A stretch of DNA of 64,000 nucleotides from a virus. Lineage: Duplodnaviria; Caudoviricetes. Location of the stretch: IMG/VR virus record IMGVR_UViG_3300025120_010521; one strand, given 5' to 3'. Of the stretch, positions 4,161-61,442 are shown piece after piece. The notes under the pieces were generated by a model. That model ran no database searches and had not been told where the DNA came from. It saw only the letters and a list, made by a program, of their open reading frames with translations. The stretch's first letter is position 1. Every line of letters begins with the position of its first letter. A program made the translations under genes and the position numbers.

Positions 4161-4364
4161 CTACGCCGAGTGTTTTGGCATTTTTTTTTCTACAAACCAA
4201 ACATGTTTTTTAATTACAGGATCATATTTTCGTTGTCTTATTTTCATTGTTCTTTTTTCACCTTTGGTAGGTTTACGAACATAGTATCTTGTTCCTGTAT
4301 CTGGTTTGTTTTCTTCTGGTACTAGCATTTTTAATTCAAATGTTTTCTTACTACTTTTTGCCAT
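4161..4364 (-). CDS. rpmG: 50S ribosomal protein bL33 (Cys-free type)
   Basis: TGTRYYVRK...RKYDPVIKKHVWFVEKK matches the bL33 KYDP...H..F.E.K signature. Confidence 0.85.
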   Translation of the reverse strand: MAKSSKKTFELKMLVPEENKPDTGTRYYVRKPTKGEKRTMKIRQRKYDPVIKKHVWFVEKKMPKHSA

Positions 4365-7085: not shown

Positions 7086-8009
7086 TTAAAATGTAAATTT
7101 AAGACCAGTTGAATAACTGTCAGTATCTACTGTAGATCCTGTATTATCTGAATGTTGATATTCAACATACGTTGATAATGATTCAGTTACTCCGTAAGAT
7201 AATCCAGCAGTGTAGTATGCAGTTGAATCTTCAACTTTGCCATAACCACCAGTTAGTTTTGCACTACCTGTGGTATATGAAGCAACTACTTCATTGCCAG
7301 TTACATCTGTTGCGGCATCTTTTTCAGTATATGTGTAACCAAGTGTTACAGGCATACCTAAAGATGAAGCATCTGCGGTTATACCAACACCATAGTAATA
7401 TATGTCATTTACTTCATCACTTGACATACCTCCTGATGCTGTTATTACGCCGGCGTCATATGTTACTGTACCTTCCGATACATCAACACCATCTTTACCA
7501 GTTGAGCCATCTATTTTGACTAACCCATCAAATGTAAGTGCACCTATATTATTACTATAGGCAATTGTGTTTGTATCACGTGTGAACAAATTTTGATCAG
7601 CACTTGAACCATACACTTCAAATACATCTGTATGACCACTTACATTGTCTGTAAATGGAGATGATTGACGACCCGCTGACAACGATCCTACAGGACCAAA
7701 ATTTAAACCAACAAGGGCCAATCTTGAATCCAACGGATTATTATTCGAATCATCAGCATCAATACCAAATTCAACTTTAGCAAAGCCTGTTATGCCTTCG
7801 CCAATGCCTTCTTCAGCATCAATACCAATAAACGATGAGTTATTTTCAGCTTTCATATATGAATTACCGCTTGAATTTTCATCGTTGCTAACTTTATAGT
7901 TAATTGAACCGTAGATATTAACTTCGGCTTCAGCTTCACTACAAGCTGTCAATGAGAACGCCATTGCTATTCCAAATATAAATGCTATGCTTATATATTT
8001 TCTCATCAT
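7086..8009 (-). CDS. Outer-membrane porin (general diffusion type)
   Basis: Signal peptide, N-terminal VNIYGSINY, G..SAGRQ, alternating beta strands, C-terminal GLKFTF. Confidence 0.88.
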   Translation of the reverse strand: MMRKYISIAFIFGIAMAFSLTACSEAEAEVNIYGSINYKVSNDENSSGNSYMKAENNSSFIGIDAEEGIGEGITGFAKVEFGIDADDSNNNPLDSRLALVGLNFGPVGSLSAGRQSSPFTDNVSGHTDVFEVYGSSADQNLFTRDTNTIAYSNNIGALTFDGLVKIDGSTGKDGVDVSEGTVTYDAGVITASGGMSSDEVNDIYYYGVGITADASSLGMPVTLGYTYTEKDAATDVTGNEVVASYTTGSAKLTGGYGKVEDSTAYYTAGLSYGVTESLSTYVEYQHSDNTGSTVDTDSYSTGLKFTF

Positions 8010-8072
8010 TTCCTCCTTTTCTAATTCCTCTATGGAATTAATTTGCCACGACTCTTCGCCATGGACCTCACA

Positions 8073-8101
8073 ACTATATACTAATAGTTGTATTCTGTCA
8101 A
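8073..8101 (-). promoter_or_regulatory. Sigma70 promoter of the porin, overlapped by an inverted repeat
   Basis: TTGACA-17-TATAGT; CAACTAT-N6-ATAGTTG at 8071-8090. Confidence 0.65.
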
Positions 8102-8114
8102 CACATATTGTGGA

Positions 8115-8384
8115 TTATTTTTTATTTTCTACTATATCTTGTGAGCTTCTAATGAAATTTTCGTCTTGGTCTTCTTTTGCTTTAGTAGGTGATATTATTT
8201 CTTCTAATATATCTTTTGGATCAACTTCGTTGCTTTGTAGTGCCAACATGCATTCTTTAACTGTTGGTCTTAAACCCATTCTATGCATTTTTGAAGCAAT
8301 CAATACTAATTCAAATTTTGATAAATCCGGGTTAGTTCTAAGAACGTCATCTGCTAATACTAATTTTTTTTCTTGTACTGTCAT
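8115..8384 (-). CDS. Divergent RNA polymerase omega (RpoZ)-like protein
   Basis: SKFELVLIASK resembles RpoZ NRFELVLLAxxR; ALQSNEVDPKDILEEII resembles ALxEI...PxDLxExLI. Confidence 0.5.
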   Translation of the reverse strand: MTVQEKKLVLADDVLRTNPDLSKFELVLIASKMHRMGLRPTVKECMLALQSNEVDPKDILEEIISPTKAKEDQDENFIRSSQDIVENKK

Positions 8385-8396
8385 ATAAACCTTTTC

Positions 8397-8472
8397 TGGT
8401 GCCGGCAGAGAGATTCGAACTCCCGACCTGACGATTACAAATCGCCTGCTCTACCAACTGAGCTACGCCGGC
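8397..8472 (-). tRNA. tRNA-Thr(UGU)
   Basis: GCCGGCGTAGCTCAGTTGGTAGAGC-GGCGA-TTTGTAA-TCGTC...GTTCGAATC...GCCGGCACCA. Confidence 0.97.
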
Positions 8473-8490
8473 ACATTGCATTTATTTATA

Positions 8491-8518
8491 TAGAGGAGCA
8501 AAGTTAAATGCTCCTCTA
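8491..8518 (-). terminator. Inverted repeat, probable terminator
   Basis: TAGAGGAGCA-N8-TGCTCCTCTA perfect 10-bp stem downstream of the 8555 gene. Confidence 0.6.
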
Positions 8519-8554
8519 CTCGATATAGTTATTGTTGTTATTTGTAACGAGAGA

Positions 8555-8779
8555 TTACTTCTTGCCTCTATTAGCAAGCCAATAAATAACACCAATAGCA
8601 ATTAATCCTACTACACCGGCATCACCAAGTGATCCAACTAGTGCAACAAGATTGCCGACAACGTCTGCTGGAAAGAATGGTACTGAACCAAACACAACCT
8701 GCAATACAATGCCAAGTAGTAAAAATGTTAATGCCACTTCTGTAAGACTTGACAGTAACCCTTTAATTTTATCAATCAT
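8555..8779 (-). CDS. Small hydrophobic membrane protein (paralog of 20576..20800)
   Basis: LTEVALTFLLLGIVLQVVFG...DVVGNLVALVGSLG..GVVGLIAIGVIYW; SD AGGAGG. Confidence 0.8.
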   Translation of the reverse strand: MIDKIKGLLSSLTEVALTFLLLGIVLQVVFGSVPFFPADVVGNLVALVGSLGDAGVVGLIAIGVIYWLANRGKK

Positions 8780-8826
8780 AATGTTTCCTCCTTATTCATG
8801 ATTCGAACATTTCTTGATCATTTATT

Positions 8827-8855
8827 ATAATACTACTAAAAATTGATAATGTCAA
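8827..8855 (-). promoter_or_regulatory. Sigma70 promoter
   Basis: TTGACA-17-TATTAT. Confidence 0.65.
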
Positions 8856-8894
8856 CTAGAAAAGTTAACAATTGTGGCCAGTGTTATCCACAAA

Positions 8895-10334
8895 TTAAAT
8901 ATTATGTTTTGTTTGGCTTTGTTTTACCCAATTGTTAAACATAGTTTGTGGGTCTGTTTGTTCTTTTAAGCCTTTTCTTACCATACCCATTACACTTGGT
9001 TTAGTAATGATTTTTGATAATTTCATTACAACATCAATTACATCATCTTTGTAACTGATTGGTAAGTCTTTGCCGTTTGCAAGTGTACGCATAGCAGTTT
9101 TAAATCTTGATACTTTGTTTTTTGGTACCATGCCTTGTCTTGCTAACATATCAAGTTTTGATAAATCTTGTTGCGAAAGTGATTCTGCCAATGCTCTTGA
9201 AAGTAAATTTGCTTTGCCTGGATTATTAAGTGCTTTTGCAACTTTTAAAAGCAAAGGTTGTAGTGCTTGTTGTCTTGTTGGATCAATATTATTACCTGAT
9301 GCTAATTTTTTAATTGCAACCATAGTTGTCGCATTTGCATTTGGGTCTGTTTTTTTAAGTAAATCTAATTTTACTTTAATATCTTTAGCATCTTCCGGTG
9401 ATGCATCTGGTGTTGCTTTTGTACGTGATTGTTTTGCCGCCATTGCTTGTTTAATTCCTGGAGTAATAGCATCTTGATCAACATTTGCATTTGCATCTGG
9501 TTCAACATCCATACCATGATTTGTTTTAAACCAACCTTTGACCTGTGCCGCATCTGGGTCACTTTGTTTAAATTGTAAATAACTTTTCCAAACATCATTA
9601 GCAACTTGACCAATGTTTGCTTCAGCATCTGCTTTAGTTTTCATATCCCCTAAACCAGGAACTTTGCCTACAACTTTTTTTGCTTTGTTAACTGCTTTTT
9701 TAATAGCACCAAATGGTGCCTCATCAACTGATTCATCTTTGATTAATTCTTCTTGATGCCTTGCAAGTTCTTCTATCGAATCAAAAACACCTGTCATCTT
9801 ACCATTTTTATATGAATAAAATTTTCCTTTATGATTTCTAGCTGACAGTCCATATTTGTTCATACTTGTTTGCGATGACCCATCTTCAAGTAAACCTAAA
9901 TCATCAATCCTATCTGCAATCCAAACATCTGGATCTCCTTCTCTGGCTTTCATAATACCATATGGCATTTCGCCTGAATTCATATAGTAACCAAATAATT
10001 CATCATACACTTCAGATCCATATTCAATATCATCTGTGCTTTTAATATTGTGTTTGATTAATATTGCTTTGATTGTGTTATATTCAGTTGATTCATTTAA
10101 ATCTTTTTTCATTTGTTCTTTTGATTTGCTGTATTTCTTTTGAAACTCTTGATCTGATAATGTTTTAATATCAGCATCTATGTCTGACATTCTACCTTCA
10201 TTTTTGTTAGGCTTGCCATGTTTGTTGTGTTGAGCCCATGCAATGGCGTATGGTGCACCTGGATCGTCAAACTTCTTTTTTAGTTTTTTAACTTGTTTTT
10301 CTCTTCCTGGTGGTGCTATTTCGCTAAATTTCAT
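8895..10334 (-). CDS. Modular putative virion internal protein
   Basis: N-terminus MKFSEIA; short modules separated by ...KNE/LNE/LLE/VDE/LAE/LKE; SD GTAGGAG. Confidence 0.65.
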   Translation of the reverse strand: MKFSEIAPPGREKQVKKLKKKFDDPGAPYAIAWAQHNKHGKPNKNEGRMSDIDADIKTLSDQEFQKKYSKSKEQMKKDLNESTEYNTIKAILIKHNIKSTDDIEYGSEVYDELFGYYMNSGEMPYGIMKAREGDPDVWIADRIDDLGLLEDGSSQTSMNKYGLSARNHKGKFYSYKNGKMTGVFDSIEELARHQEELIKDESVDEAPFGAIKKAVNKAKKVVGKVPGLGDMKTKADAEANIGQVANDVWKSYLQFKQSDPDAAQVKGWFKTNHGMDVEPDANANVDQDAITPGIKQAMAAKQSRTKATPDASPEDAKDIKVKLDLLKKTDPNANATTMVAIKKLASGNNIDPTRQQALQPLLLKVAKALNNPGKANLLSRALAESLSQQDLSKLDMLARQGMVPKNKVSRFKTAMRTLANGKDLPISYKDDVIDVVMKLSKIITKPSVMGMVRKGLKEQTDPQTMFNNWVKQSQTKHNI

Positions 10335-10354
10335 TGTGTACTCCTACTTTATAT

Positions 10355-10606
10355 TTATCGCTTTAACATAGGATATATGTCTTTTACTTTGGTTCTATAT
10401 GCTAGTGTATCTGCACTATACCCCATTTGTGCTATATTTTTGTGTTTTTTACGTGCATTTTTAAAAATTTTACCAAATGGATCAACTGCTTTACGGGCCT
10501 GTGCTTTTGTAGTACCTGGTGTTATTGGAAATGCAATTGTGGCTATATTACCACTTGCTGTTGAACCTGCAGTTGCATCTTCTGTTATAATGTCATTTAT
10601 ACGCAT
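10355..10606 (-). CDS. Small putative internal protein
   Basis: MRINDIITE followed by a basic mature region. Confidence 0.6.
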   Translation of the reverse strand: MRINDIITEDATAGSTASGNIATIAFPITPGTTKAQARKAVDPFGKIFKNARKKHKNIAQMGYSADTLAYRTKVKDIYPMLKR

Positions 10607-10620
10607 AAAGATATTTATCT

Positions 10621-10845
10621 TTAACTTAACTTTTTCTTAATCCATAATACAAGTGCGTACACAGTAATTGCGTACACTGTAGCAACACCAATATCTAATA
10701 AGTGTTCACGCATATGATATATAAATTCAATACCTGCTTGTACATCGCCCATATTACCAGTTGATGTCGTTTGCATTATTTCAACATTACCGGCACCGTC
10801 ACCGATATTAATTTCTTTTCCACTGTATGGATTATCTTCTGACAT
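10621..10845 (-). CDS. Small membrane protein, C-terminal TM helix
   Basis: IGVATVYAITVYALVLWIKKK. Confidence 0.7.
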   Translation of the reverse strand: MSEDNPYSGKEINIGDGAGNVEIMQTTSTGNMGDVQAGIEFIYHMREHLLDIGVATVYAITVYALVLWIKKKLS

Positions 10846-11042
10846 TATTTTTTTCTCCCTGACTTCATGTTAGCACACCAGTGATACATTTTTGCTTTTT
10901 CTCCTGATGCTTTTTTAGCCTTTGCTCTTAGACTAGTAACTGATCCTTTGCAACTTGCTCCTGAACGTTTTACTCTACCAGGACGTGATTTACCTTTTTT
11001 CTTGCCATCAGCAAAATTTTCTGTTAGTTCTATGTATCTCAT
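10845..11042 (-). CDS. Small basic putative internal protein
   Basis: MRYIELTE followed by a K/R-rich, two-Cys module. Confidence 0.65.
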   Translation of the reverse strand: MRYIELTENFADGKKKGKSRPGRVKRSGASCKGSVTSLRAKAKKASGEKAKMYHWCANMKSGRKK

Positions 11043-11440
11043 TTTTTGTACTTGTTACTAACGTTTTTTGCTTTGCCTTTTCTATCTGGATTTGAATCTT
11101 TTCTGCGTTTTCTATTTACTGCTTGAGCTATTGCTTTCTTACCGCCTTTGGATCTTAACGAAGACGCTCTTGCTTTTGATAAACATTTTGGCTTGCCTTC
11201 ACCTGATTTCGAATCACCACATTTGCCAATTCTTTCGCCTTTGGTGTTGTAACGATCCCAGCCACCGCCACCTGCGCCACCTTTTTTGCCTTTGCCAAAC
11301 CAAGCACGTAGATCTTCTTCTACGTTTTCTTGTGCTTCTTTTTTTACACAGTTAGGAACACGTTTTCCAAATAACATTTTTGTGCCTTTTTTCTGGTAAC
11401 CCTTCCAGCACTTCTCATCTAATAACTCAATTAGCTTCAT
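11039..11440 (-). CDS. Two-module basic putative internal protein
   Basis: MKLIELLDE-KCWKGY...PNCVK; VEE-DLRAWFG...GKPKC. Confidence 0.65.
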   Translation of the reverse strand: MKLIELLDEKCWKGYQKKGTKMLFGKRVPNCVKKEAQENVEEDLRAWFGKGKKGGAGGGGWDRYNTKGERIGKCGDSKSGEGKPKCLSKARASSLRSKGGKKAIAQAVNRKRRKDSNPDRKGKAKNVSNKYKK

Positions 11441-11631
11441 TACTTTTTACTCTTATTTCCCCAATTCTTAGCACCAACTTTTCTGCATTTTACTAGAGCA
11501 CCGCTGGCGTAAGCTGACGGCCACACTTTATAACGTGATTTAACTTTATGATAACAAGCATCTTTCTTTTCAGCAAGTGTATCAAACTCATCTTCTGTAA
11601 GTGCTTTTAATTTAATTTCATTTATTCTCAT
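11440..11631 (-). CDS. Small basic putative internal protein
   Basis: MRINEI...LAE-KKDACYHKVKSRYKVWPSAYASGALVKCR. Confidence 0.65.
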   Translation of the reverse strand: MRINEIKLKALTEDEFDTLAEKKDACYHKVKSRYKVWPSAYASGALVKCRKVGAKNWGNKSKK

Positions 11632-11645
11632 AATGTCTCCTAATA

Positions 11646-12356
11646 CTAATATTTACCAAATGCCCAATATTTTTCTTCACACCACCAACATGTTTCACAA
11701 GGTGTAACATAGCCGTTAGTTTCTTGTGATTCACCTTCACAAGACCATGTTAACGGCAATAACGTATTAATTAACCCGTGTTGCTTATACATATCTGCAA
11801 CAAATTTCTTATCTGTATTAAAAAATGGTCGCATACCCATACCATCATCTTGTATAACTACGTGATTAAGGTCTGGATTTCGTCTATCTACTTGATCAGT
11901 GTCATGCGACATTGTTGTATGTGGTGGGTTAGATGTTATACCATCATACAATACATCCCATGTTCTAATTTCAAAATTATTTTTATCTCTATCTGTAAAT
12001 TCTTTTAATTCAGTTTGATGGGCATCATTTAAATCTGGATAATAAATTACATGATCTTTCATGTTCTTAAAATTTAAAAGTTCAATAACTTTGTTTATAA
12101 CTTGAGATGCTTTTACAGGATTCCATGGGCGTTGTCGTCTGACTGACATTGGTTGCACTTTAATATTTAAGTTTTTATCTTGTACTTGTTTACAAAGTAA
12201 ATATAGTAACAAACTAGAATCTGCTCCACCAGAACACCATATACCCAATGTGTTTACTTCGCGAGTGTTGTTTGTAAATTTAGGAATTACTATATCAATT
12301 GATTCAGACTTATTTGTATTATAATACGTTTGTCTTGTTAATTCTTGCCATTTCAT
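11646..12356 (-). CDS. QueC-like PP-loop ATPase
   Basis: CSGGADS PP-loop; TWSCE...CETCWWCEE Zn-like motif; start at MKWQEL (ATGA overlap with the SOD stop). Confidence 0.65.
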   Translation of the reverse strand: MKWQELTRQTYYNTNKSESIDIVIPKFTNNTREVNTLGIWCSGGADSSLLLYLLCKQVQDKNLNIKVQPMSVRRQRPWNPVKASQVINKVIELLNFKNMKDHVIYYPDLNDAHQTELKEFTDRDKNNFEIRTWDVLYDGITSNPPHTTMSHDTDQVDRRNPDLNHVVIQDDGMGMRPFFNTDKKFVADMYKQHGLINTLLPLTWSCEGESQETNGYVTPCETCWWCEEKYWAFGKY

Positions 12357-12997
12357 CTTCCCATCCTTAGGTTGATTTGATTCCAATCAATAATAGTCAT
12401 TATACTTTTAATGTATTTTGCTTTTGCATCTTTGGCAGGAATATAATCCGTAAATGAATGTTCCCACATATCAATTGGCATTAGTATGTCTGACTTGTAA
12501 GATTGATTTGGTGTTGTTTTAAGTTCGCCTGACTTACTTAAATATACCCAACCACTACCTTGTATGGTCATTGCTGTAGCAATCATTTCTTCTGTAAATG
12601 AATTAAGATCGCCAAATCTGTGTTCAATTAATTCTTTAATGGCACCATCTGGTTTTGATCCATCTGCTTTTTGCAGTTGTTCCCAGAATAGGTTGTGTAG
12701 CATTGCACCACCATAGTTAAAATCTGGATCACCTTCTTTGTTATTATATCTTGTTACGTATCCGTTTGATAATATGTTGTAGTGATATTCTACATTGTCT
12801 TTAGATAGCACTGGTGCTAAATCTTTTGTTTCATAAGCCAACTTTTTTAGTTCTAGTTTTTGTGGTTTTGACTCGTTCATAGATAGTTTCATCCTTTCAT
12901 GATGTCTTCGTGCAAACTCTTTGCGAGGATTTGGCATTTGTATAAAATGCGGATTCTCGCCAATGCCTGCTAGTTGTTTTAATCTTGCTATATCCAT
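12353..12997 (-). CDS. sod: Fe/Mn superoxide dismutase with N-terminal leader
   Basis: EYH...Y, LHNLFW, IQGSGW, DMWEH metal-ligand motifs; about 40-aa leader MDIARLKQLAGIGE. Confidence 0.85.
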   Translation of the reverse strand: MDIARLKQLAGIGENPHFIQMPNPRKEFARRHHERMKLSMNESKPQKLELKKLAYETKDLAPVLSKDNVEYHYNILSNGYVTRYNNKEGDPDFNYGGAMLHNLFWEQLQKADGSKPDGAIKELIEHRFGDLNSFTEEMIATAMTIQGSGWVYLSKSGELKTTPNQSYKSDILMPIDMWEHSFTDYIPAKDAKAKYIKSIMTIIDWNQINLRMGR

Positions 12998-12998
12998 A

Positions 12999-15830
12999 TT
13001 ATTTTATAGCAACTTGGTAAGCCATACCACGTTGCTTTTGTCCTCTTACATAAGTATCGCCAATTGTTACAAATTGCATTAATGCTTCTGTTGGTTCATC
13101 AATTGATATTGTTTGTACTCCATCACTTGATAATCTAACTAATAACATAGAATGTAATCCTTGTTTAACTTTATAACTTTGGAAAGCAATTTTTCCAAGT
13201 TGTAAAGGAGAAACATTTGGATAGTTTACAACTGCACTGTCAATTAACCCATCGTCAGCACTTTGATATGCTGTCTTTAATACTAATTTAAAAATTTGTT
13301 TTTGTTGTTCTGATGTTAACGGATTATTTGGATCCTTAGCATATTGCGGATCACTTAATACTTGAGCTAAATGTGGTTGTTTAACTCTTGTTGTTTTTCC
13401 TGGTAGTGTCCTAACACCAGCAGGAACTAATTCTTTATTTAATAAACTATCTGGTCTATTTAAATATGTTTCTAAAGGAGTATCATCATATGCTGTCCAT
13501 CTGCCTCCGCCGCCTGAACTAGTAGATGCTTTAGCTTTAACTTCAATTAATTTACCGCCCCATTTTAAATCGTAACCAGCATCTGGTGACGTTCCAACTG
13601 TAATTTTTCTGTGGAAAGCCGCTAGTGCAACTTCGCCTGGACCAGCTTCACCGGCAAATTTTCCTTGCAATTGAGGATCGTTAATCATTTTTTGGAACAT
13701 TACTGAAGCAATGCCTGATCCTGTCCACCAATCGTCCATAGATTTAACATCACCACTGCCATCAAATAAAATTTCTGGTTTAATATAATTTTGTCTGCCA
13801 AATTCTTTTAGAAATTGAATTTTGGTTGGTATTGGAACTTCCATATCAACTATTATTTGCGATAATCTATTAATAAATTGTTTAGCGTCACTATCCTTAC
13901 CAAAAGCAAATTTTACAATGTTTCCAATATTTCCTGAACGTAAGATACTTGCAACTTTATTTAAAAGTTTTGGATTATCAGTTTTTTGTATTCTTGTTAT
14001 TATTTGTTTTTTTAAAGTATCTGGATCAACTTCGTCTTCTTTTATCATGCCATGTTTAATTAAAAGTTTTTCTAACTGTTCTTTGACCGGTAGCATGTAA
14101 TGATTCTTTCTGCCTTTGGTCAAGTATGAAAGTGTACGCCAAGTTTTAAACCAATCTTCTGTGCCTGGTTTTGATGTTGCTTTCATTTTTTGATGCATTT
14201 CTGTACCTGGATGTGTTAACAAGCTCATTTCGCCGCCATCATTTTGATATGGAACCTCAGCTGGATTTGATATTGTTTTTTTAGCTTCTTTTACTAGATG
14301 ATTAATACTTTTTTTAATTCCTTGCAAATCCATTTGTTGTTGTAGTGTTAAGTCTTTGTTTGAGCCATTAATTTTAATTAATGCTTCTTGCATACGTTTT
14401 ACACGTCTTAAATTTTTTGGTGTCATTATTGGTGGTACTCCATCTTTAGTTACTTTAAATCCAAATTTAGCTGACTGCTTTTTGATTGCATCAACACCAA
14501 CATCATGTGTAGTGTTTATGCCCTTAACAACTCTGCCACCATGTTCTGTTAAATTATTTTTTTCTTTGAAGTCTTTTATACTGTTTTGTACTTTTGACAA
14601 TGGATCTTCATCTGCTTGATACTTAACACCATAACCTCCACGTTGTAGCCAACCTTGTATATTTCTTCCTCTATCATCAATTAGTATATTTTGTGTTCCA
14701 TCTGATTGTACAGCATATGAATCTTTTCTTCCAACAACAATAATTTCATCTGGTTGTATAGCAAGTTCTCTTTTAATCCATTTAATCTTTTGTACTTTTG
14801 AATTTTCATGGTCACCTCTCAACGGAGATGATAATATTTTGTAACTACCAAATTCTTTTACAATCATTTGTATTAATTTGTCTGTAGTTGGAAATTTTGG
14901 TAATCTATTAAAAAAATCTGTACCAATCATTTTATCTAATGTTGGATCTGTTTTAGCAGGTGGAATATCTTTGTAATTTCCTGTAGTTACTCCTGCAAGT
15001 TTGGCATACTCGGCAAAAAAGTTTGCAAGTACTCCATCCATATCAACATAAGCGATTGGTTTACTTTCTGGTGCTTCTAGTTTTGCACTTTCATTAATAT
15101 CATATGATTTGCTTTTGTGTTTTGTATAACCTCTTTTGTCTAGTGCTTTTTTATCTTTGTGTGATCCTGCCGCACCGCTTTTTCTAATGGCTTCCATGTC
15201 TTTCCAATTTGGATCACGTGATTTGATATCTGGTTTCTTTGGCATCTTTGGTTTATTTGCCATTTCCATAATTCCCATACCTTGTCTTACTTTTGTGTAC
15301 AATTGTTGTTTTAATTTTTCGCCACCATCAATAGTTTGTGAAAATGTGTTAAAGTCTCCTGCTTTTGCAAGTGCTCTTGCCTTAGATGCTGACACACCAG
15401 ATACATCAGTAGCATCTGCATCTCTTTCGCCTGAACTTACTATTGAAAATTTCTCAATACCAAAATCTTTAAGATATGGTCTCATTTGTGATTCAAAGTC
15501 TTGTTTACGATCAGAACCAACTACCATAATAACTTCGTTATATTGTTTACCTAATTCTTCTAATGCTTCCCACGGTGTACGAATTGCTGGATCGTCCATA
15601 ATATTCATATGTGGAAACATTGCTCTTAAGAATGTAATTTTATCTTTGTACTGTAATGGATTTTTTTTTGGATCATTAGTTTTACCTGTAAACACATAAT
15701 GGTCTGCACCGCTAGATGCATTTTTTACAACATCCATTAATCGTGCATGTCCTTTAGTTGGAGGATTAAATCTACCAAATGTAAACACTGCCTTTTTTGC
15801 GTTTGGTTCTAATAATTCATTTATGTCCAT
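12999..15830 (-). CDS. Multidomain protein: cytidylyltransferase-like + HAD 5'(3')-nucleotidase-like + PD-(D/E)xK nuclease-like
   Basis: TFGRFNPPTKGH and VVGSDR; YVDMDGVLANF and LIDD; GPGEVALA...YDLKWGGKLIEVK. Confidence 0.75.
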   Translation of the reverse strand: MDINELLEPNAKKAVFTFGRFNPPTKGHARLMDVVKNASSGADHYVFTGKTNDPKKNPLQYKDKITFLRAMFPHMNIMDDPAIRTPWEALEELGKQYNEVIMVVGSDRKQDFESQMRPYLKDFGIEKFSIVSSGERDADATDVSGVSASKARALAKAGDFNTFSQTIDGGEKLKQQLYTKVRQGMGIMEMANKPKMPKKPDIKSRDPNWKDMEAIRKSGAAGSHKDKKALDKRGYTKHKSKSYDINESAKLEAPESKPIAYVDMDGVLANFFAEYAKLAGVTTGNYKDIPPAKTDPTLDKMIGTDFFNRLPKFPTTDKLIQMIVKEFGSYKILSSPLRGDHENSKVQKIKWIKRELAIQPDEIIVVGRKDSYAVQSDGTQNILIDDRGRNIQGWLQRGGYGVKYQADEDPLSKVQNSIKDFKEKNNLTEHGGRVVKGINTTHDVGVDAIKKQSAKFGFKVTKDGVPPIMTPKNLRRVKRMQEALIKINGSNKDLTLQQQMDLQGIKKSINHLVKEAKKTISNPAEVPYQNDGGEMSLLTHPGTEMHQKMKATSKPGTEDWFKTWRTLSYLTKGRKNHYMLPVKEQLEKLLIKHGMIKEDEVDPDTLKKQIITRIQKTDNPKLLNKVASILRSGNIGNIVKFAFGKDSDAKQFINRLSQIIVDMEVPIPTKIQFLKEFGRQNYIKPEILFDGSGDVKSMDDWWTGSGIASVMFQKMINDPQLQGKFAGEAGPGEVALAAFHRKITVGTSPDAGYDLKWGGKLIEVKAKASTSSGGGGRWTAYDDTPLETYLNRPDSLLNKELVPAGVRTLPGKTTRVKQPHLAQVLSDPQYAKDPNNPLTSEQQKQIFKLVLKTAYQSADDGLIDSAVVNYPNVSPLQLGKIAFQSYKVKQGLHSMLLVRLSSDGVQTISIDEPTEALMQFVTIGDTYVRGQKQRGMAYQVAIK

Positions 15831-16350: not shown

Positions 16351-16412
16351 AACTAATTCCTAATAGTATTGTATATACTAGTGTATTTATACTGTCAAGA
16401 AAAATTAGAAAC

Positions 16413-16979: not shown

Positions 16980-17017
16980 ATCTATATAAATCCCTATATA
17001 GTATATTTATAATTGGA

Positions 17018-48742: not shown

Positions 48743-48808
48743 TATATTTATACAGTTTACTGTATATATATTATATAAGCATGAATTTTAAAAAGTCAAG
48801 AGTCTAAT

Positions 48809-56255: not shown

Positions 56256-56438
56256 CTAATCCTTCTTGTCTATTTTACCAACATAAGGTTTAATCCAACC
56301 AACCGGCTTTGGCTTATCCTTTGATTTTTTTAAACTGTCAGCTTTTATTGTTTTATTTATAATAGCACGATTTTGCTCAATGTCAATCTCTTTTTTAAAT
56401 TCTTTCATAGACAATCTAAGGTCTTCTTTAAATTTCAT
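56256..56438 (-). CDS. Track ORF; probably the tail of the -1 frameshift product of 56597..57991
   Basis: Frame is open 55 codons further upstream, to the A9 run at 56603-56611. Confidence 0.55.
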
Positions 56439-57991: not shown

Positions 57992-58014
57992 AATAATATT
58001 ATTTATATGAAATT

Positions 58015-60316: not shown

Positions 60317-60489
60317 TGCCTGATCTCCTCTGTCATTAATGATAGATTATGTGATTTGTGTGGTATTGCTACCAAACTTATTTATAGCTAATATAACACA
60401 AAAAATAAGATTTACAACTGTTTTTAACGCAAAGCAGGTATGCAATTTTGATATAGCTAGTTACTTAATGCTATGCAATTTTATTATAT

Positions 60490-61413: not shown

Positions 61414-61442
61414 TATTATATACTAACATTATTTATAGTATC

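Follow-up and report, generated by a model that had tools for sequence, protein, structure and literature searches.

A probable, highly diverged relative of the bacterial RNA polymerase omega subunit in a lineage of giant marine T4-like phages

We analysed a 64,000-nt stretch of DNA (IMG/VR record IMGVR_UViG_3300025120_010521; hereafter, the window) from a giant, uncultured T4-like marine phage and focused on an 89-aa protein encoded at 8115..8384 on the minus strand, as placed by the ORF list and the sequence (stop codon at 8115-8117). The evidence supports that this protein is a highly diverged viral relative of RpoZ, the omega subunit of bacterial RNA polymerase. That it is an omega in the sense of remote homology and a common fold is, in our judgement, very probable.

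Results

Sequence relationship to cellular omegas

The protein is not recognized by curated family models. At E ≤ 10, no Pfam or NCBIfam model matched it, so neither PF01192 nor the rpoZ model was recovered, and the PHROGs yielded only one non-significant family. PF01192 was also not matched by three other members of the family at E ≤ 1, and none of 67 relatives had a precomputed Pfam domain. Searches of the PDB sequences with phmmer and with the family profile returned chance matches only (E > 0.7) and no omega. The family profile run over 121 proteobacterial genomes gave nine weak matches, none of them at the rpoZ locus.

For profile-profile comparison, a reference set of 26 proteobacterial RpoZ sequences was assembled from genomes with a PF01192 score above the cut-off. 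The phage family aligned to this set in hhalign with a probability of 91.3% (E 9.4e-7), and a wider family alignment of 37 sequences did so with 92.0% (E 6.4e-7). The alignments paired phage residues 1-60 with RpoZ residues 1-65 over 53-54 columns and scored 41-42. As controls, 200 column shuffles of the RpoZ alignment had a mean score of 10.6 (s.d. 2.3) and a maximum of 21.5, against the 41 observed, and the reversed RpoZ alignment scored 9.1.

The omega-like ORF also ranked top among the 228 open frames of the window, both with the RpoZ HMM (7.8 bits; next frame 3.4) and with the RpoZ profile in hhalign, where each frame was represented by a single sequence (28.0; next frame 25.8). Family members starting with M-G-R-V-F reached up to 14.4 bits against the RpoZ HMM, above the window protein, and in the reverse direction the family HMM aligned 31 of the 31 RpoZ tested in one register. 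The family scores did not discriminate between alpha-, beta- and gamma-type RpoZ. Among the nearest named protein-language-model clusters, which we use as a lead only, the ten best all carried PF01192 or a family of its clan (scores 0.77), and a mostly viral cluster was found among those with PF01192. A Chlamydiota cluster was likewise among the nearest language-model neighbours (0.80), again as a lead only.

Canonical RpoZ was also searched against a phage collection, and the matches were set aside as fragments of host DNA, misfiled bacterial contigs or likely contaminated records only. Four records filed as Campylobacter, Escherichia and Salmonella phages (MG065691.1, MG065686.1, OR845831.1 and OR851528.1) contain E. 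coli omega with 100% protein identity; these are most likely host DNA or contamination and not phage omegas. A scan of IMG/VR with the RpoZ alignment gave 11 loci, which were found only because the pattern demands M-A-R-V-T, and it provided no bridge between the two families.

The predicted structure has an omega-like core

A first AlphaFold model, built from 22 sequences (pLDDT 71), gave no clear structural match (Z ≤ 3.4), with four omega chains in its top 50. The deeper model, built from 37 sequences, had a pLDDT of 79 overall, of more than 90 over residues 11-60 and of 79 over residues 61-70. Based on AlphaFold, hhalign and VIA-align, an omega-like four-helix core is predicted at residues 6-65 (8190..8369, minus strand), with helices at residues 11-17, 23-35, 42-50 and 56-64. 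It is followed by an acidic, low-confidence tail at residues 66-89 (8118..8189, minus strand; pLDDT about 50), in which a motif, I-R-(G/S)-S...Q-x-(I/V)-V-E, is conserved in the clade.

When the deeper model was compared with 48,161 PDB representatives using VIA-align, no more than three chains attained Z ≥ 5, each of them an omega, namely 7ye1_E from C. crescentus (Z 6.0, r.m.s.d. 2.7 Å, 57 residues aligned), 6wmp_E from F. tularensis (Z 5.5, 2.4 Å, 54 residues) and 6j9f_E from X. oryzae (Z 5.0, 3.4 Å, 57 residues); Z scores of 5-6 are modest for a small helical protein, and the predicted model depends in part on that same signal in the sequence. Omega chains made up about 15 of the top 50 matches, including those of Pseudomonas, Bacillus, Staphylococcus, Clostridium, Streptomyces, Mycobacterium, Thermus, E. 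coli and a cyanobacterium. The structure alignments begin at model residue 6-8, corresponding to omega residue 1-3, which is the same register as in hhalign.

Foldseek with the deeper model ranked omegas first, with a probability of 0.82 but a non-significant E of 0.39; the match to the RpoZ fold that had been proposed for this program was thus borne out in rank and not in significance. With either model, Foldseek returned nothing at E ≤ 0.001, and an atlas shape search with the omega-like model gave TM ≤ 0.41. The preliminary description had named the protein omega-like by eye from its letters. This name now has profile-profile homology, the fold and a weak complex prediction behind it, although every curated family model misses the protein, and the profile or structural match to RpoZ on which it was to be judged was obtained (hhalign 92%, E 6e-7; omegas as the only chains at Z ≥ 5).

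A weak resemblance to another polymerase subunit was observed as well. Residues 28-64 (8190-8303, minus strand) resemble E. coli beta-prime 380-416, with 12 of 37 residues identical (E 0.015 in one comparison), and this beta-prime segment ends beside the ppGpp site 1 residue R417. The fold searches also included, at Z 4-5, beta-prime 445-494 of M. tuberculosis, residues 406-456 of the plastid RNA polymerase of tobacco and residues 314-368 of the phiKZ polymerase. The resemblance is possibly that of a common helical hairpin only, and we did not adopt a reading of the protein as a beta-prime mimic, since its similarity to omega is the stronger one and extends over the N-terminal block too.

Anatomy compared with cellular omega

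The phage protein and bacterial omega (RpoZ; PF01192 RNA_pol_Rpb6, TIGR00690; e.g., 7ye1 chain E and the E. coli subunit) are similar in size, have the same order of four helices and have an acidic, disordered tail in common. In helix 1 the pattern (R/K)-V-x-x-x-D-x-L is kept, and the block in helix 2 reads S-K-F-E-L-V-L-I-A-(S/A)-K where omega has N-R-F-E-L-V-L-L-A-A-K. Both of the RpoZ-like blocks pointed out earlier are present, at residues 22-32 and 48-64, in an alignment that outscores all of the shuffled controls. The second block, A-L-Q-S-N-E-V-D-P-K-D-I-L-E-E-I, resembles its alphaproteobacterial counterpart by eye; hhalign places it two residues off the by-eye alignment, and its register is uncertain.

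The central segment is indeed shorter, as had been noticed from the sequence. The loop between alpha2 and alpha3 lacks 12 residues, including the invariant N-D-K, and has an invariant L-R-P-T instead, while two extra residues are found between alpha1 and alpha2. The omega-invariant residues D8, F17, E/D18, L19, V20, A23, K/R25, R28 and probably A-L are kept. Compared with the 26 RpoZ, N15 is changed to S, R26 and Q29 are each changed to an invariant M, D44-K45 are deleted, and in the window's clade R3 is changed to L. The residues that are invariant in the phage family (M33, M36, L38-R39-P40-T41 and C45) differ from those of cellular omegas.

The phage protein differs from RpoZ in being phage-encoded, in scoring below every curated HMM threshold and in having no N-D-K loop. 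Because the curated thresholds are failed and several residues invariant in the 26 proteobacterial omegas are lost, we do not file it as a regular RpoZ member. The genomic setting is different as well: E. coli rpoZ lies next to gmk or spoT, whereas the omega-like gene adjoins neither. As regards method, the nearest parallel in the literature is that of the diverged omegas of chlamydiae, which were recognized by weak sequence similarity, synteny and AlphaFold (2023, PMC9973325) and had likewise been missed by routine annotation. The chlamydial proteins, however, are the only omega of the cell and are inherited vertically, whereas the phage protein is an extra copy on a virus.

The N-terminal segment and its leader

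The protein starts with a leader, M-T-V-Q-E (codons 1-5; 8370..8384, minus strand), that has no omega counterpart in the structure alignments. The following residues, K6-K7-L8-V9-L10, stand at omega M1-A2-R3-V4-T5 according to hhalign and six or more independent structure alignments. The replacement of the omega start MAR(V), which the preliminary description had reported, is accordingly seen in both parts, the added leader and the altered K-K-L-V-L. Its stronger wording, that the protein lacks the ppGpp-contacting N-terminus, holds in that the segment is changed (R3 to L) and extended, but not in that the segment is present, as K-L-V-L here and as G-R-V-F in most relatives. Judged from these residues, the N-terminal segment is altered and not missing in the window's clade.

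The leader follows the pattern M-x-hydrophobic-x-E within the clade, with E5 in 15 of 15 members and a hydrophobic residue 3 in 14 of 15, and is missing from four sisters of the clade, which start with M-R-K-L-V-V. The largest group of the family starts with M-G-R-V-F, which retains the arginine and lines up exactly with omega, and a distant group, with x-E-L-R-(V/I)-F, keeps the arginine too. Since both groups retain it, the loss of the arginine is no family trait.

A start of the form M-x-hydrophobic-x-E is found in eight of the 96 minus-strand genes of the window, where chance would give 2.6 (binomial P 0.004). Of these eight genes, seven lie in one block, 8115-15830 (starts at 8384, 10334, 11042, 11440, 11631, 12356 and 15830).

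The omega-like gene is real and belongs to one phage lineage

The omega-like ORF has an ATG start and a ribosome-binding site, AAGG, 8 nt upstream. It is a genuine gene maintained by purifying selection, with a dN/dS of 0.19-0.33 against close relatives. About 65 relatives, 50-129 aa in length, were recovered by two word-indexed searches, and every one comes from a marine metagenome; tblastn of the protein against 50,697 phage records matched nothing. An exhaustive search of 1.84 billion representative proteins with the family profile detected six proteins at E ≤ 0.001, all of them from the family itself. The family is thus narrow, with six clusters only in that search.

The window genes lie nearly all on the minus strand, with a GC content of 28-36% and six tRNA genes. 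Among the window's products are matches for baseplate and tail fibre, several radical-SAM enzymes and an ATP-dependent DNA ligase, and host-type genes form a run (cysteine desulfurase, UvdE, RpiB, porin, superoxide dismutase and SufB). An identical omega-like protein is also encoded on a contig of 285,939 bp. The contigs of the relatives reach 328 kb, and two of them are filed as viral by IMG/VR.

The relatives that were inspected have one common gene order, in large T4-like phage contigs. It runs from a 74-aa hydrophobic protein through a stem-loop, a late-type promoter and tRNA-Thr to the omega-like gene, continues with the porin (in some), RpiB, UvdE or another repair enzyme, and a ferredoxin or flavodoxin, and ends with a 310-aa protein, L33 and cysteine desulfurase. 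The order around the omega-like gene persists at 43% identity, which together with the dN/dS indicates a selected gene that is vertically kept in the phage lineage. A single lineage of giant marine T4-like phages carries the omega-like gene as a fixed feature, and the porin, RpiB, UvdE, ferredoxin or flavodoxin, L33 and cysteine desulfurase genes that follow are of host origin.

Several neighbours deserve mention. The conserved upstream neighbour, defined by sequence and synteny (8555..8779, minus strand), encodes the 74-aa protein, which is very hydrophobic, has no family match and is present in every related contig examined. The tRNA-Thr (TGT; 8397..8472, minus strand), detected by ARAGORN, lies 12 nt upstream of the omega-like gene, with which it is probably co-transcribed, and has the same position in relatives. 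The porin gene (PF00267; 7086-8009, minus strand) is found at this spot in some relatives and is missing in others. A 67-aa gene at 4161-4364 (minus strand) matches ribosomal protein L33 (PF00471, 29.7 bits, cut-off 25), and in related phage contigs the L33 gene is again present, downstream of the omega-like gene and separated from it by a few others. A gene for a TraR/DksA-type zinc finger was sought as a neighbour of the omega-like gene, and none was found.

Expression signals around the omega-like gene

A pattern search located a T4-type late-promoter motif, TATAAATA, at 8483..8490 on the minus strand, directly upstream of tRNA-Thr and the omega-like gene. The overall frequency of the motif in the window is no higher than expected by chance. 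Of its nine copies, all but one are on the coding strand (8483-8490, 16384-16391, 17004-17011, 48745-48752, 56354-56361, 58000-58007, 60379-60386 and 61430-61437; all minus), and all six copies that were compared with the ORF list, which leaves out those at 60379 and 61430, are just upstream of a gene start. The strand and position of the copies fit T4-type late promoters. In relatives, AATAAATA takes the place of TATAAATA at the same location.

A conserved stem-loop with an 8-bp stem (8493..8516, minus strand) ends the upstream gene, and paired changes keep the stem in relatives. Two sigma-70-type promoters were identified by sequence on the minus strand. One, at 8827-8855, is that of the 74-aa gene; the other, just after the omega-like gene at 8073..8101, is near-consensus (TTGACA-17-TATAGT) and serves the porin gene. 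Early transcription may also read through into the omega-like gene from the strong sigma-70-type promoter upstream.

Among the assembled contigs of RNA libraries, one of 564 nt, found in a single metatranscriptome and about 96% identical, comes from a related strain and spans 7807-8370. In the other three RNA runs, the contigs cover the porin gene and the tRNA without the omega-like ORF. The contigs give a weak hint that the omega-like gene is transcribed. Three studies contributed four marine RNA libraries whose contigs contain exact-match pieces of the porin gene.

Predicted complex with beta-prime

A complex was predicted for the omega-like protein with E. coli beta-prime, supplied as residues 330-680, 760-942 and 1131-1407. 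The ipSAE was 0.35 (runs 0.31, 0.46 and 0.35), against 0.00 for the best control, and swapping out the 330-680 fragment reduced the score to 0.00. At least 73% of the contacts agreed between runs, and the partner pLDDT was at least 57. In the calibration, 58 of 80 solved complexes and two of 110 mismatched pairs attained the mark; the band at 0.60 or under contains seven of the 80 solved complexes and both of the passing mismatches, and our prediction, with its own alignment and four chains, differs from the calibration set-up. E. coli beta-prime served as a stand-in for that of the phage's own host. The pass may also reflect memory, omega-beta-prime complexes being solved. The complex with beta-prime that had been suggested as a check was thus obtained in contrast to the control but in a weak band and with a substitute partner, and the prediction lends weak support to beta-prime binding.

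Discussion

Phages retune the host RNA polymerase via sigma factors, anti-sigmas, ADP-ribosylation and small inhibitors, and omega influences beta-prime assembly and the choice of sigma. On balance, and with moderate confidence, we favour the interpretation that the 89-aa protein is a diverged phage RpoZ homolog that would sit on host beta-prime and work as a subunit of RNA polymerase. During infection the protein would be produced from the NATAAATA promoter, at least in the late phase, would bind host beta-prime at the site of omega and would become the omega of the RNA polymerase used in phage transcription. The equivalent of omega residues 2-5, part of ppGpp site 1, is changed in the clade, and the loop is rebuilt in the whole family. 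As the altered parts include the omega portion of ppGpp site 1 and the loop, the hybrid enzyme would be expected to differ in ppGpp site 1, in sigma-factor preference and in the stability of beta-prime.

Other explanations share some of this evidence. It is very improbable that convergence or chance accounts for the resemblance to omega and that the protein is an unrelated small helical phage protein: all HMMER-level searches fail, the single-sequence hhalign margin is small (28.0 versus 25.8) and the shallower AlphaFold model stayed at Z ≤ 3.4, but the sequence profile, the fold ranking and the language-model neighbours agree on one family, the sequence and structure alignments are in the same residue register, and about 15 omegas among the best 50 of 48,161 chains are far more than chance would give. 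We also think it rather improbable that the protein derives from omega and is no longer an RNA polymerase subunit, serving instead as a decoy or adaptor for another partner, such as a host or phage factor that normally docks on omega. Such a role would suit M33, M36, L-R-P-T and C45, which are unlike cellular omegas, the loss of the N-D-K loop and the weak complex score, and GafA of RcGTA, a regulator of a phage-like element, is reported to dock on omega (PMC9638019). The basis of the omega fold, namely its hydrophobic core and its first conserved block, is nevertheless kept, and the beta-prime contact was predicted only with the 330-680 fragment, the control without that chain scoring 0.00.

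Two further proposals concern how a phage omega would be used. The preliminary idea was that a phage omega could displace host omega and make RNA polymerase less sensitive to ppGpp; in a more specific form, its main role would be to destroy ppGpp site 1 by this replacement, leaving the RNA polymerase of starved ocean bacteria blind to the stringent response during infection. Proteobacterial omega forms half of ppGpp site 1, where omega residues 2-5 contact the ppGpp phosphates and help to hold them (PMC7676912), and in the clade a leucine takes the place of omega R3, with five additional residues covering the N-terminus. We regard this role as unlikely, since the majority of family members retain the arginine, in G-R-V-F or L-R-V-F, often in the exact omega register, and an E. 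coli RNA polymerase with omega residues 2-5 deleted and three beta-prime substitutions bound ppGpp only about 2-fold worse (PMC7676912). Moreover, site 2 (DksA) would persist, the host may not use site 1, and a late-type promoter does not fit an early takeover.

The other proposal, which we hold to be doubtful, starts from the leader. In T4, Alt and the internal proteins are packaged in the virion, processed by the protease and act on the host at injection, and Alt ADP-ribosylates the alpha subunit of the host RNA polymerase. The omega-like protein could similarly be virion cargo that is made late with the same leader pattern as a neighbouring block of candidate packaged proteins, trimmed after Glu5 by a T4-type prohead protease and injected with the DNA, re-equipping the host RNA polymerase from the first minute. 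It would have late expression, a hydrophobic-x-Glu site and the host RNA polymerase as target in common with the T4 proteins. M-T-V-Q-E fits the hydrophobic-x-Glu prohead-protease motif, a late-type promoter is present, and a cut after Glu5 would put the mature N-terminus exactly at omega's own start. The leader has only five residues, however, against about 10 in Alt and the internal proteins, and the other omega-like clades do not have it; we rate the proposal low because five residues are short for a targeting sequence and those clades are without the leader. If it were true, the protein would be an injected polymerase subunit and a counterpart to T4 Alt.

We found no published paper on a phage-encoded bacterial omega, and likewise none on a core subunit supplied by a phage. 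The family shows that phage genes of this kind can escape Pfam-style annotation, and its conservation and small size (89 aa) make it easy to synthesize and to test with RNA polymerase in vitro. The L33 copy in the same gene island suggests a broader tendency of these phages to exchange small components of host machinery for their own. A viral omega, if confirmed as such, would represent a new and compact route to seize transcription in nutrient-starved ocean bacteria.
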